Shown here one piece after another: positions 38,450 through 43,122 of a DNA stretch of 44,456 bases. Numbering within the stretch: the stretch's first letter is position 1; each line of letters opens with the position of its first letter. This DNA is from Escherichia phage vB_Eco_ORH_001. The notes beneath the pieces were generated by a model. It worked only from the letters and a program-made list of their open reading frames with translations. It was not told the DNA's origin and ran no database searches. The stretch is taken from the sequence record PV656001.1. The stretch is one strand, 5' to 3'. Made by a program: the position numbers and the translations under genes.

Positions 38450-40668
38450 ATATTGTTTTTGCAACGCTGCGTAACACATTCGATAAAAACCCTGTAGCGC
38501 GTGAAATGCCGCTGGAGCAGTTTGTCGAGTATGTCTGCGATACATCGAAGCGTTTATCCGTGGACCCGTCATGGACTAAGGAAGAGTACGACGCTGCCAA
38601 GATTAAACAGAAAGCTATTGCGCCTGTTGGTGGTCGCCGTAAAAACGCTATCCTGGAAGACAGTGTGGTTAAGTTCGATTTCGACCATCTCAACCGTACT
38701 CAGTACCGCGACCTGACACGCAAATTCAAGAACGCGCCGTTCTTCAATATTCTGCACACAACGGCATCGCATCAGCACGCATGTAAAAACGGAGATTACG
38801 CTTTCCGCGTTCTGGTTCCAGCTCGCACGCCGTTTAACTCTAACGACGCGTGGATGGTGCAACGTGCTATTTGTGCAGAGTTAGAAATAGACGAAGCGTT
38901 GCGCGACCACTGCACAGAAGACGGCAACCGCCTTATCTACCTGCCGCATAAAGAGTCGAAGATAACGGTCACAGAAGGGCGCGTTATCCGCGCCGAGCGG
39001 TACATCAAGAAAGCCGAAGAGATGGGGTTGCGTAAGCGTGAGGCTAAAACACTTGCCGCTGATGAGCATGGGCTTAACGCGGATATAGCACACTTCTGCG
39101 AAGCCGAGCTTGGCCTTGACGCTTTATCTTCCGGGCGCGGGTACGAAGTGCCATGCCCTAACGAACATCTGCATACAGGCAAGGGCTCCACCAGCATAAT
39201 GCTCGACGGTAAAGAAGTGCGCTTTGTCTGCCAGCATACAAACAACGGCGCTTGCACCGAGCTTAACCGTAGGCAGCATTTGGCCCTGCGTATGTGTGGC
39301 CTACCCGACGAGCTTAACGTAGATAAGCAACCTATCAGCATTAACAGCATTCGTGCGGCTCTGCCTGATTTACCGGAAGAAGAGATTGAAGAACTACACC
39401 GCACAGAGAACGAGGACCCAGTAACTTGCAGCCTCGACGACCTGGAAGACGATGCGGAATCAGAGGAGGACGAGTTACCAGAACCGGTAAAGGCTGATTT
39501 CGTCGTTGAAGGGTACATGCCGTCGGATTGCATATGGGATATTGTCGGTGAATCTGGTACGTACAAATCATTCTATACGCTGGGGATGATGTACCTGAGC
39601 GCCGCCGGATACCGGTTTGCAGGGGCGGATACCCAGCGTTGCCACCATTTCTATATCGATGGCGAAGGCGGTGCAGCTACACGTACACGTATTGATGCGC
39701 TAGCGGCTAAATATGGCGAGGAAGGTAAAGATTATGTACATGTTATCGATATGGGCGAAGTCAGAAAACTGAAAAGCCTGATTAGGTTAATGCGTGAAAC
39801 TGCTGGCGACGAGCCAATTGGCATGGTTGCGTTCGACACCCTCAACCAGACGCTGGCCCTGACGATTGATAAGTTCGACGAGAACAGTTCATCGACGGCA
39901 ATCGGCATGGGTAAAGTTATCGCCATCCTGAAAGAAGTACGTGACGCGACTAAAGCCGCGGTAGGCGTTGTCCACCATACGCCGAAGGGTGGAAAGAAAG
40001 CCCGTGGCAGTGGGGCGCTGTACGCGGGCGTTGACGTAGAACTGACGATTGAACGTGCAACCGACCGTCAAATAAACGTATACCACTCGAAATTTAAGCA
40101 CGGTCCTCAACAGAAAACGGTTGGCATGGTGCTGGAGTCTGTGCAGTTCCGCGAAGCTCCGCCGCCGAAAGAGTACCGTGCGGTTGAGTTCCTGGGGAGC
40201 ACAGAAGAATACGGCACAATCGTAAACCTGGACCTTCCTGAGCCGCACAAGGCACTTGTGCTGATGCCGTGGGGATTCGAGCCGTTCAAGACCGACGAAG
40301 AGAAAGAGCGGGAAGAAGGGTTGACTAACGAAGGTAAGCAAAAAGTAAAGGAAGAAGTTAAACGCGGCAGGGATGAAGTAAGGAAGGAGTCAATACTTTC
40401 GGCACTGGAAGACCTGCAACAGTCAGATGACACAGGTCGCGGTTTTACTCAGCAGCAGATAGTTGCCCGTTCCGGTGACTTTTCTGTGACTAACACCCAT
40501 CTTGATAAAATGCTGAAAGATGGCGAACTAATGCTAGGCTGTGACGTTAACGGCGAAGTAGTGCCGAGAACGTATCGTATACCTGAAAGAATAGGGGATA
40601 GACTAAGGCCGAAGACAATATACGAACCAAATGAAATGTTGACAGTGACAGAGGAGGATTTGGAGTAG
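38446..40668 (+). CDS. primase-helicase fusion: AEP-like primase domain, Cys-rich segment and RecA-like NTPase domain
   Basis: VKFDFDH (DxD-like), HTTASHQ (sxH-like), Cys cluster CPNEHLH...C, Walker A GESGTYKS, Walker B-like MVAFDTLN, acidic C-terminal tail TEEDLE. Confidence 0.7.
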   Translation: MNIVFATLRNTFDKNPVAREMPLEQFVEYVCDTSKRLSVDPSWTKEEYDAAKIKQKAIAPVGGRRKNAILEDSVVKFDFDHLNRTQYRDLTRKFKNAPFFNILHTTASHQHACKNGDYAFRVLVPARTPFNSNDAWMVQRAICAELEIDEALRDHCTEDGNRLIYLPHKESKITVTEGRVIRAERYIKKAEEMGLRKREAKTLAADEHGLNADIAHFCEAELGLDALSSGRGYEVPCPNEHLHTGKGSTSIMLDGKEVRFVCQHTNNGACTELNRRQHLALRMCGLPDELNVDKQPISINSIRAALPDLPEEEIEELHRTENEDPVTCSLDDLEDDAESEEDELPEPVKADFVVEGYMPSDCIWDIVGESGTYKSFYTLGMMYLSAAGYRFAGADTQRCHHFYIDGEGGAATRTRIDALAAKYGEEGKDYVHVIDMGEVRKLKSLIRLMRETAGDEPIGMVAFDTLNQTLALTIDKFDENSSSTAIGMGKVIAILKEVRDATKAAVGVVHHTPKGGKKARGSGALYAGVDVELTIERATDRQINVYHSKFKHGPQQKTVGMVLESVQFREAPPPKEYRAVEFLGSTEEYGTIVNLDLPEPHKALVLMPWGFEPFKTDEEKEREEGLTNEGKQKVKEEVKRGRDEVRKESILSALEDLQQSDDTGRGFTQQQIVARSGDFSVTNTHLDKMLKDGELMLGCDVNGEVVPRTYRIPERIGDRLRPKTIYEPNEMLTVTEEDLE

Positions 40669-40670
40669 GT

Positions 40671-40698
40671 AAAAAGAAAGGGGCGTTAAGCCCCTTCA
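40671..40698. terminator. hairpin terminator between the convergent primase and XRE genes
   Basis: aaggggc-gttaa-gcccctt with A-run upstream; the XRE stop codon lies in the loop. Confidence 0.55.
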
Positions 40699-40901
40699 CC
40701 GAACGCCAGCCACTTGGCATCTACTTGCAGCACTTCCGCCAGTTTAAACAGCGTTGCCGGGCGGACGTCCTGAGTTACTCCGAGTGCCAGCTGGTTAATC
40801 GCGCCCTGGGAAACGCCAGCCAGAACAGCCAGACGGCGCTGGGATATGCCGAGCTCTTTACGGCGCTGTTCTACACGGATTCCTAGTTCAGATGGTTGCA
40901 T
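40686..40901 (-). CDS. XRE/Cro-C1-type HTH transcriptional regulator
   Basis: 71 aa; ISQRRLAVLAGVSQGAINQLALG is a canonical HTH; RBS AAGGAG; divergent from the tandem early promoters. Confidence 0.8.
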   Translation of the reverse strand: MQPSELGIRVEQRRKELGISQRRLAVLAGVSQGAINQLALGVTQDVRPATLFKLAEVLQVDAKWLAFGEGA

Positions 40902-41547: not shown

Positions 41548-41602
41548 CTACTTAACTTATGGTGTCCTCACGTATGAGGGCACCAAACTGAGGGTCGGAA
41601 TT

Positions 41603-41875
41603 ATGATTTACCAACTCTACCGCGCCGTTGACAGGCGGGATAACACAGAGGCGTTGTGGCTGTTGCGTGCGCCGTCAGGTGCGCACCAGATGGAAGAGAT
41701 GGCGTACTTAGGCAAAGTACCGCGGGCTAAAGATATAGGCCGTCATGTGTCGCAGATTAAGCGCACGACTTTTGCCAAGCCTGACTTTTATGCCTTCGAG
41801 TCGATGTATGGATGGGCCATGCATTGCCAGCACCAGACCAGACATTTAATTGACCAGTGGGAGAGCAGAGCATGA
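41603..41875 (+). CDS. hypothetical protein (90 aa)
   Basis: RBS GAGGG; stop overlaps the next ATG. Confidence 0.45.
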   Translation: MIYQLYRAVDRRDNTEALWLLRAPSGAHQMEEMAYLGKVPRAKDIGRHVSQIKRTTFAKPDFYAFESMYGWAMHCQHQTRHLIDQWESRA

Positions 41876-43122
41876 TTCTAAAAGAACGCGGTGGCAATAA
41901 TGATGTGCACGCCTTACTGTCACCGTCTGTGGCTAAAAAGTGGCTTACATGCAGTGCATCACTGGCATGCGAAAAAGATATTCCTAACACGTCAGGTAAA
42001 GCCGCCGTTACGGGGACCGCGTGTCACACCATAGCCGAGATGCACTTAAACCAGTACATCAAAGGCACTGCGTTGCCGTTAGAGCGTGAAGTCGGCGCTT
42101 ATGTGCTGGATGAGGGTAAAGGCCAGATTAAGGCGCTGATCAGCCCGATGAAAGGCGCGGTACTGATTACAGCGGACATGATTGAGCAGGTTCGCAAGTA
42201 CACCGACTACTGCAAACCAATTATAGATGTAGCTACTTACGCCAAACTGGAAATGCGCGTAAATCTCACTGAGGTGTTGCACCCTGGTTATGAAGGCGTT
42301 GAGACGTTCGGGACAGCTGACCTTGTTGCCGTTCAGGAACTGGCAAACACCGACGAGCACATGCTTATCATCGGTGACCTGAAAACTGGACGGCATCGTG
42401 TCGAAGCGAAAGAAAACAAGCAGCTTATGCTCTACGCTCTCGGTGTTTATCGCCGACTCAAGAGACGTTATAACATCACAGTAGTGCGCCTGGTCATCTT
42501 CCAGCCGTACGCGGGGGGTGCGTCAGAGTGGGACATCTCGGTCGAAGGTCTGGAACTGTTCGCTAAGTTCGCACAGAAACGGGCACTGTTAGCGCTTGAT
42601 GCTTATTTCCGTGGAAAGAAGAACCTGAAAGCGTCGGACTTTAAACCGTCGGTCGATGGTTGCCAGTGGTGCCGGTTCTCTGAACAGTGTGCCGCGCGTA
42701 CAAAGACGGTTAATTCTGTACTGGCGGAAGAACTTGAAGACGACTTTGTGCTGGAACTGACGACGGAGCAACTCGTAGTTGAGTATGAGAAGTTGCCGTT
42801 GTTGCGACAGCATATCGACAAGGTCGAAAAAGCGATGTCCGCCGCGTTGTATTCTGGTAAGAAAGTTCCGGGGTACAAACTGGTAGAAGGACGCCCAGGT
42901 AATCGTGCGTGGAAAGACGCCGATGCGATTGAAGTGTCGCACGGAGACATTCTCAAAAAAGAGGTATTGATGTCCCCTACGGAGGCGGCAAAAGTTCTTT
43001 CGGCAGATGAGATGGCAGCGCTTGAGCCATTTATCACACGTAAGCCGGGTGCACCATGTGTCGCAACGGCGGACGACAAACGTCCTGAGTGGAATCAGGT
43101 AACAGAGGAGGATTTGGAATGA
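41872..43122 (+). CDS. PD-(D/E)xK nuclease, Cas4/RecB-like with C-terminal Cys cluster
   Basis: GTADLVAV...IIGDLKTG (D...D/E-x-K) and CQWCRFSEQC; N-terminal Cys in LTCSASLAC; acidic tail TEEDLE; start at the ATGA-coupled ATG. Confidence 0.65.
   Translation: MILKERGGNNDVHALLSPSVAKKWLTCSASLACEKDIPNTSGKAAVTGTACHTIAEMHLNQYIKGTALPLEREVGAYVLDEGKGQIKALISPMKGAVLITADMIEQVRKYTDYCKPIIDVATYAKLEMRVNLTEVLHPGYEGVETFGTADLVAVQELANTDEHMLIIGDLKTGRHRVEAKENKQLMLYALGVYRRLKRRYNITVVRLVIFQPYAGGASEWDISVEGLELFAKFAQKRALLALDAYFRGKKNLKASDFKPSVDGCQWCRFSEQCAARTKTVNSVLAEELEDDFVLELTTEQLVVEYEKLPLLRQHIDKVEKAMSAALYSGKKVPGYKLVEGRPGNRAWKDADAIEVSHGDILKKEVLMSPTEAAKVLSADEMAALEPFITRKPGAPCVATADDKRPEWNQVTEEDLE

Follow-up and report, generated by a model that had tools for sequence, protein, structure and literature searches.

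A short acidic C-terminal peptide shared by the helicase-primase and the DUF2800 nuclease of Escherichia phage vB_Eco_ORH_001, a candidate docking tag of the replisome

We analyzed the C-terminal ends of two replication proteins encoded by Escherichia phage vB_Eco_ORH_001 (sequence record PV656001.1). The whole stretch of 44,456 nucleotides, read on one strand, is referred to here as the window, and positions are those of the window. The two proteins, a helicase-primase and a nuclease of the DUF2800 family, both end in the seven residues VTEEDLE, a claim of a preliminary description of this DNA that the translations of both open reading frames (ORFs) bear out. The peptide belongs to a short acidic motif that is not random, is conserved as amino acids apart from its DNA context, recurs in several proteins and co-varies within genomes. 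Based on sequence comparison and on analogy with known replisomes, we consider it probable that the motif is a docking tag for a common receptor, with the phage DNA polymerase favored as its reader.

The likeness of the two tails extends to the DNA, as had also been reported. An exact 17-mer (ACAGAGGAGGATTTGGA) is common to the two gene ends (40648-40664 and 43102-43118), all five core codons are the same in both tails of the window, and a repeat finder placed the ends in one family (D12) with 19/20 nt the same (40645-40664 versus 43099-43118), in direct orientation and 2454 bp apart. The 17-mer was found nowhere else in the window, even when up to 2 mismatches were allowed, and occurred in 0 of 100 shuffles. 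Among 506 six-frame ORFs with a minimum length of 40 residues, VTEEDLE is the sole C-terminal 7-mer that any pair shares, and approximately 2e-5 such pairs would be expected by chance for 82 proteins. Given this expectation and the absence of the 17-mer from the shuffles, the tail match is not due to chance. Recent duplication or gene conversion between the gene ends might be proposed from the near-identity, the direct orientation and the spacing. We give this explanation, like chance, next to no credence: both tails are ancient, and within genomes each varies without the other (TEDDLE versus TEEDLE; TEGDLE versus TEDDLEA), and no relative was found without the intervening segment. The 19/20 identity arises because the same peptide is combined with the same choice of codons that form a Shine-Dalgarno (SD) site, and thus does not point to recent copying.

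For comparison with relatives, 74 related loci (L002-L075) were taken from IMG/VR around the nuclease gene. All 49 helicase-primase tblastn hits in this set end in T[ED][EGDR]DLE, and the tail is kept in 68/71 nuclease ORFs, the three exceptions being a truncated gene, an ORF with five residues added after the motif and one with EEDSE. The Kagunavirus tails read VTEEDLE, and the helicase-primase and nuclease tails read TTEGDLE and VTEDDLEA in Jersey-type phages, ASDEDLNS and ASDEDLS in phages like Klebsiella phage 37P2/VLCpiS11a, and ATDDDLKD and ATDEDLSNE in Dhillonvirus, so that [ST][DE]xDL stands at the C-terminal end of both proteins in four enterobacterial phage clades. In the 37P2-like and Dhillonvirus clades the nuclease is 43-57% identical to that of the window, and the helicase-primase, a protein of 765-777 residues with the same AAA_25 architecture, is encoded on the opposite strand with its tail kept; all of these distant AAA_25 proteins end in [ST]D[DE]DLxx. 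Because of the opposite strand, an explanation by direct DNA repeats is inapplicable in those two clades. Seven Thr/Ser codons are in use at the tail (ACA/ACC/ACT/ACG/AGT/AGC/TCC), along with both Asp codons, both Glu codons and four Leu codons (TTG/TTA/CTG/CTT). The D-L pair is constant across the related tails save for a single L-to-S change (L002), and the clades differ in the residues immediately before the tail. The constancy of D-L, set beside the variation in codons, upstream residues and strand, indicates that the tail is selected as a peptide. The preliminary description had named a similarity confined to the ribosome-binding site (RBS), with no conservation in related phages, as the result that would speak against it; the opposite was seen, with the peptide kept down to 43% nuclease identity.

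We also considered a constraint at the level of DNA or RNA alone, in which the tails would be an RBS and coupling signal (AGGAGG-N7-ATGA) or a boundary for cassette recombination and the peptide would be a by-product. The AGGAGG within the nuclease tail does lie ahead of a coupled gene at 43119 and serves as its RBS, in agreement with the preliminary description, and a coupled junction, in which an SD site is placed 5-10 nt ahead of a start codon overlapping the stop of the preceding gene, was found for the nuclease copy only. SD-like codons (ACA GAG GAG) at the nuclease end track the downstream gene, being present in 36/37 distinct contexts with a small gene at the overlapping ATGA and in 1/20 contexts where the nuclease gene is followed by TAA and the promoter of the gene for the protein that binds single-stranded DNA (SSB) (Fisher 6e-13, with contexts that are not phylogenetically independent). 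Both gene ends (40666 and 43119) are moreover slots that hold many unrelated small genes at the same exact ATGA in L002-L075. Against this explanation, what comes after the helicase-primase tail of the window is a hairpin and then a convergent gene, with no gene on the same strand, and among helicase-primase ends, 15/48 of which have a coupled small gene, those without one mostly keep the SD-like codons (19/25, window included). Conversely, a nuclease gene with no downstream gene uses AGT GAA GAA, which forms no AGGAGG, and still encodes VSEEDLE, and the peptide is kept on the opposite strand. No small-gene family was present in both slots among 49 cassettes. An explanation at the DNA level, which accounts for the codon identity and not for the conservation of the peptide, is in our judgment very improbable, and the RBS is a separate constraint that overlaps the peptide constraint. 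For annotators, the nuclease end offers an example of protein-level and ribosome-binding-site constraints sharing the same 20 bases.

The slot genes belong to at least 14 families, several with predicted membrane-like sequences. In L010 the slot protein (60 residues) resembles the 51-residue protein of the window and itself ends in KKEDLE. Three recombination scenarios for the gene ends were rejected. Accessory genes hopping between the slots by way of the 20-nt repeat would require a family at both slots, and there was none among the 49 genes. A repeat acting as the flanks of an inserted cassette did not agree with the lack of relatives without the intervening segment and is also contradicted by the strand of the helicase-primase gene in Dhillonvirus and 37P2-like phages. 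Gene conversion between the tails did not agree with their independent variation and differing codons.

Related copies of the motif are found outside the two tails (Table 1). The copy in the helicase-primase linker follows a Cys in relatives, where it reads C[ST]LDDLEDD, CTLEDLEEE, CDEEDLDDE or CTDEDLDDD. The copy in the SSB, a protein of the T7 gp2.5 type, reads S[VT][DN]DLEDD in Kagunavirus- and Jersey-type loci (L002-L050), and distant relatives have SCSDEDLGDD or TATDDDLGDD at this place. These two sites were paired independently by the repeat finder (repeat D7, 80% over 30 nt). At the position of the internal nuclease copy, EELEDDF, distant relatives have TATD[DE]DLGDD. The copies of the window in linkers and SSB are looser than the C-terminal tails. 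Among six-frame ORFs of at least 50 residues from eight representative genomes or loci, [ST][DE][DEG]DL is confined to replication proteins, with as many as five occurrences in a locus, both in linkers and at C-terminal ends. A 63-residue protein encoded just upstream of the polymerase in 37P2-like phages ends in TATDEDLE. The motif was absent from the DNA polymerase in all clades examined.

Several other features of these protein ends were noted. The end of the SSB gene (43946-43984) encodes an acidic run and then a basic tip, DDEEEEAPRRERRRR, and the SSBs of L051, L060 and L073 (Dhillonvirus, 37P2-like) contain a unit of an acidic run plus (K/A/R)PR(K/R)RR two or three times; such a polyampholyte tail is unusual for a gp2.5-type SSB. 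The C-terminus of the polymerase (window 1750-1792) is kept to very distant relatives as G[FL]PL[AV]AEG...(Y/K)RY(R/A/K)K and ends in a small basic cluster, as determined by comparison of L051, L060, L073, L076, L117 and L152. Upstream of the nuclease gene, all four clades encode an acidic 173-residue protein with a K/E/P-rich linker. Its C-terminal block, DDFDDLLEEF...KYF(EEE), is similar to the first half of the bipartite tail found on the SSB of distant phages (described below), and the gene of this protein has a 33-nt similarity to the SSB gene (repeat D5).

A search of 1.84 billion representative proteins yielded 11132 DUF2800 homologues. Nearly all of the best 150 of these, which are 30-59% identical, carry a conserved D(K/P)RP element and then finish in a tail that is acidic and hydrophobic, such as ...DDFEDLTPPDLI. 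We compared the tips in 80 distant viral loci, in which the nuclease and an adjacent protein, confirmed as an Enc34-type SSB for L076, share a bipartite tail D[DE]F[DE]D[VLI]...ADDL[VIL] at the C-terminal end. The distant SSB ends in ...ADDLV as does its nuclease, and distant tips end in L, V, I, M or F. Nuclease and SSB tips pair by genome (DLV/DLV, DMI/DMI, AFV/SFV, DFM/DFM and DLL/DLL). Identity of tips within a genome exceeded that in all 20000 label permutations (k = 3, 4, 6), also with duplicates removed, in a test whose permutations ignore phylogeny. Similarly, 52 other ORFs end in the last 3 residues of their own nuclease, as compared with 6.5 +/- 2.2 in mismatched genomes. Where nuclease and SSB tips match in residue, the same codon is used at only 41% of positions; ADDLV, for example, is encoded by GCG GAC GAC CTC GTA in one gene and GCC GAC GAC CTG GTG in the other. 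As the codons mostly differ, the agreement of the tips is selected rather than copied. Further carriers of the tip include a stand-alone PolA-type 3'-5' exonuclease ending in DAEDLV and C5 DNA methylases, where EDLSDLI on the methylase is matched by DDLSDLI on the nuclease and a sister genome shows an I/L change in both; small terminase subunits may be carriers too, on weaker domain evidence. Loci with extra carriers are L117 (9879-10982), L119 and L131; L152 (7488-9965, minus strand) and L126 (8664-10493); and L104, L105 and L081.

Co-variation bears on the possibility that the tails have no shared partner, each folding onto the surface by which its own protein binds DNA and acting there as a DNA mimic or autoinhibitor, so that their likeness would reflect similar physical requirements. 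The regions that hold the motif are probably flexible and the motif itself is highly acidic, and the acidic tails of T7 gp2.5, T4 gp32 and Enc34 ORF6 modulate the DNA binding of their own proteins (PMC5686142; PMC10359462). Independent intramolecular sites, however, would not demand the same constant D-L, nor would they lead different proteins of one genome to change their last three residues together, and the same tip occurs on unrelated folds (methylases and a split 3'-5' exonuclease). We regard this possibility as improbable.

The nuclease itself contains a PD-(D/E)XK domain of the Cas4/AddB/AdnA-like type. Its sequence has the four cysteines of iron-sulfur nucleases of this type, and metal binding is predicted; C27/C33 and C264-x2-C267-x5-C273 are constant in 24 close homologues, and C-x-W-C-R-F-x5-C is kept in a nuclease alignment covering 5 clades. 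In a 421-residue reading of the protein the Pfam DUF2800 model extends to residue 410, and the tail lies beyond it. A homologue, B14T of Dhillonvirus Bas14, has been studied as a retron trigger and is an active AdnA/RecB-like PD-(D/E)XK nuclease, catalytic mutants of which are inactive (bioRxiv 10.64898/2026.07.14.737667). The PD-(D/E)XK domain of B14T is followed by a region predicted to be disordered, and this C-terminal part was lost to proteolysis, which trimmed the protein to residues 18-295 (bioRxiv 10.64898/2026.07.14.737667); the end of trimming is approximately where the internal motif begins. The passages of that work examined here make no mention of the tail motif or of shared tails (bioRxiv 10.64898/2026.07.14.737667). 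The position beyond the DUF2800 model and the predicted disorder in B14T suggest that the tag may be flexible and may lie outside the folded domains. An AlphaFold2 model of the nuclease, built from a shallow alignment of the 24 close homologues, had a mean pLDDT (predicted local distance difference test) of 31, and one homologue search with the nuclease returned only proteins of at least 96% identity.

These comparisons are consistent with a mechanism in which VTEEDLE would be one copy of a short acidic linear motif, with the core [ST]-[DE]-x-D-L in this clade and an acidic run ending in D-L-V/I/L as its distant form. The motif would be placed in flexible ends and linkers of the helicase-primase and the DUF2800 resection-type nuclease (both in linker and at C-terminal end in each) and of the gp2.5-type SSB, and it probably serves as a tag by which these proteins dock on a single receptor surface shared by all. 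The tagged proteins would be recruited to the same place in the replisome and would compete or exchange there. The phage family A DNA polymerase would be the favored reader because it is the sole core replication protein without the motif. That the motif binds anything, and what it binds, we infer. The preliminary description had taken the shared tail, by analogy with T7, to suggest a common docking partner. Such a partner gains support from the conservation of the tail on both proteins across clades, and the analogy appears strengthened by the finding that the SSB is of the gp2.5 type, with a related DL motif, and that nuclease and SSB tails of distant phages co-vary. The arrangement suggests that a recombination nuclease, and elsewhere methylases and a separate proofreading subunit, may be physically linked to the fork by way of the site that the SSB uses.

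The same docking could be read by another receptor, the groove for single-stranded DNA (ssDNA) on the gp2.5-type SSB, with the tails imitating both the acidic tail of the SSB and ssDNA; the nuclease and helicase-primase would then sit on the SSB or displace it from ssDNA. Crystal structures of Enc34 ORF6 and other DUF2815 proteins, and that of T7 gp2.5, show an acidic C-terminal segment placed within the beta-sheet groove of a neighboring molecule (PMC5686142), and the T7 gp2.5 tail competes with ssDNA for the oligonucleotide-binding (OB) fold (PMC5686142; PMC10359462). The tail of the nuclease is a copy of that of the SSB and changes along with it, the two proteins are annotated as an exonuclease and annealing-protein pair, and the arginine-rich tip of the SSB in this clade could attract acidic tails. 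On the other hand, the last 11 residues, tip included, are disordered in the Enc34 structure (PMC5686142), a receptor that bears the tag itself would compete with itself, and T7 tails have both targets, which leaves room for the polymerase. We judge the SSB groove to be an unlikely reader, though the main alternative to the polymerase.

Several observations weigh against docking on a common receptor such as the polymerase. The nuclease of L002 ends in VSEEDSE, the sole loss of the Leu among the nuclease tails of L002-L075, which could be a sequencing error or a natural variant. The tails of the window end in Leu-Glu rather than in the terminal aromatic residue of T7 and Escherichia coli SSB tails, and the SSB copy is not terminal in this clade, being followed by an acidic run and the basic tip. 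Truncated Dhillonvirus nuclease mutants are viable (bioRxiv 10.64898/2026.07.14.737667), and the nuclease copy of the tag is thus not essential in the laboratory. Because the permutations ignore phylogeny, there are fewer independent co-changes of the tips than loci, several rather than dozens. Finally, small terminases are included as carriers of the tip on weak Pfam matches.

The features of the region are collected in Table 1. Over the queried 5.5 kb, the best match was Escherichia phage vB_Eco_Hrm2 (PV656002.1, 44455 bp) at 100%, with the window corresponding to its rotated reverse complement. The other top DNA matches were E. coli siphophages, several named Kagunavirus, and weaker matches were mostly Salmonella phages, at least one named Jerseyvirus; the phage of the window is a Kagunavirus. 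The PV656002.1 annotation gives the helicase-primase gene the same function. The nuclease most likely starts at ATG 41872 (416 residues), the start used in PV656002.1 and in most database homologues, and not at GTG 41857 (the 421-residue reading). A PDB sequence search gave no match for the nuclease or helicase-primase and a distant similarity to Pol I for the polymerase. The protein family of the SSB has been described (PMC5686142).

Table 1. Genes, motif copies and signals of the window.
Feature	Position	Strand	Remarks
Helicase-primase, 740 residues	38446-40668	+	ORF list; Pfam AAA_25, residues 345-516; PHROG 3228 'replicative helicase-primase' over full length
Helicase-primase linker motif SLDDLEDD, residues 329-336	39430-39453	+	Between primase and helicase parts
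Helicase-primase tail VTEEDLE	40645-40665, stop 40666-40668	+	Codons GTG ACA GAG GAG GAT TTG GAG TAG
GC-rich terminator-like hairpin	40677-40697	.	Directly 3' of helicase-primase stop
HTH_3 / Cro-CI-type regulator gene	40686-40901	minus	Pfam HTH_3, 1.2e-12; convergent with helicase-primase gene
Acidic 173-residue protein	41026-41547		PHROG 3127 (function not assigned)
90-residue protein	41603-41875
DUF2800 / PD-(D/E)XK nuclease, 416 residues	41872-43122	+	Pfam DUF2800 7e-67, PDDEXK_1 6.6e-09; PHROG 69 'exonuclease'
Nuclease internal motif EELEDDF, residues 286-292	42727-42747	+	Just after Cys cluster
Nuclease tail VTEEDLE	43099-43119, stop 43120-43122	+	Codons GTA ACA GAG GAG GAT TTG GAA TGA
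AGGAGG Shine-Dalgarno site within tail codons	43106-43111	+	7 nt before ATG 43119, which overlaps nuclease stop as ATGA
Small gene, 51 residues	43119-43274	+	PHROG 32796; ATGA overlap with nuclease stop, translationally coupled; variable accessory-gene slot
T7 gp2.5-type SSB / annealing protein, DUF2815, 208 residues	43361-43987	+	Pfam Enc34_ssDNA-bd; PHROG 112
SSB motif SVNDLEDD, residues 188-195	43922-43945	+	Acidic run follows
Basic tip PRRERRRR	43961-43984	+	Extreme C-terminal end of SSB
Family A DNA polymerase, start (residues 1-136)	44047-44456	+	Runs off window end, continues at 2-1792
Promoter-like element copies	2326-2355, 37323-37352, 40922-40951, 40966-40995, 43279-43308
Tail peptide (example of shared acidic tag)			NEMLTVTEEDLE

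A promoter lies between the 51-residue gene and the SSB gene, and a divergent promoter region lies beside the HTH_3 gene, before the gene of the 173-residue protein. Five copies of a 30-nt promoter-like element, TTGACA-N-GAATAGTTnGCTATTATAGTT, were found, with the palindrome AATAG-N4-CTATT in the spacer. Two copies face each other in the divergent region by the regulator gene and one drives the SSB gene; the palindrome could be an operator for the helix-turn-helix (HTH) repressor-like protein encoded at 40686-40901. In the PV656002.1 record a plus-strand ORF at 40725-40886, annotated as hypothetical, overlaps the HTH_3 gene on the minus strand, and the deposited annotation at this place is probably a strand mis-call.

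Detailed knowledge of replisome organization is available for very few phages (T7, T4). Therapy collections make use of Kagunavirus, Jerseyvirus and Dhillonvirus, which are common groups of coliphages and Salmonella phages with replication machinery that is uncharacterized, and a conserved, co-varying tag of seven residues gives a direct and cheap experimental handle on who binds whom in the replisome. The mode of tethering of a DUF2800 nuclease may also matter for phage-defense studies, given the role of this nuclease as a retron trigger. Tentatively, and with somewhat more doubt than belief, we extend the idea to a 'tail code' of DUF2800-DUF2815-PolA phages, in which one acidic D-L(-hydrophobic) tag would be carried by the SSB, nuclease, helicase-primase and small adaptors, in some lineages by a split exonuclease and methyltransferases, and perhaps by small terminases, all read by a single co-evolving receptor. 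If true, this would be a phage hub-and-client network like the bacterial SSB-tip interactome or the PCNA-interacting protein (PIP) box of PCNA, but inverted, in that a single reader would serve many clients bearing the tag.

The open-access literature searched gave no account of shared tails in DUF2800/DUF2815 phages or in Guernseyvirinae, Kagunavirus or Jerseyvirus phages, subscription journals lying outside this scope; comparable terminal tags are known from other systems. Beta-clamp and PCNA motifs, and the C-terminal clamp-binding tails shared by T4 gp43, gp33 and gp55, are likewise short terminal peptides by which unrelated proteins dock on one hub, and the methyltransferase clients of distant phages recall Dnmt1-PCNA. 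We know of no clamp gene in these phages, however, and TEEDLE and its variants do not resemble the clamp motif (QL[SD]LF / QLxLxL): they have no Gln, a single hydrophobic residue and a strongly acidic character, and show no PIP pattern. The bacterial SSB tip DDDIPF is a hub tag for many genome-maintenance proteins and, like the tails analyzed here, combines an acidic run with a hydrophobic end on a disordered tail, one tag serving many interactions. In bacteria one tagged protein meets many pockets, whereas here many tagged proteins would meet one receptor, and by sequence comparison the tails of the window do not match a DDDIPF-type end with its terminal Phe. Clamp binding and mimicry of the host SSB tip were both rejected on these sequence grounds.

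The closest parallel is with T7. The flexible acidic tails of T7 gp4 and gp2.5 bind basic patches of gp5/thioredoxin, compete there and may recruit proteins to the fork and exchange them (PMC10359462); gp2.5 ends in DEDGDF and gp4 in SNDTDF, and gp5 is without such a tail. The layout is the same here, with a tag containing a key hydrophobic residue on the helicase-primase and the gp2.5-type SSB and an untagged polymerase, and in all related helicase-primases examined the tag is at the extreme C-terminal end, as in T7. The two systems differ in the extent of the likeness, the T7 tails having only the terminal D-F in common and the tails of the window all seven residues. The hydrophobic position is here occupied by Leu and the last by Glu (D-L-E), so that the terminal Phe is lacking. 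In contrast to T7, there is here a nuclease client, there are internal copies in linkers, and the SSB copy is followed by the basic PRRERRRR. The helicase-primase is of the AAA_25/RepA type and not a homologue of gp4, and the polymerase is only distantly Pol I-like. We propose that the tag may nevertheless resemble the T7 tails in its working, with a Leu-containing acidic end in place of the terminal aromatic residue.

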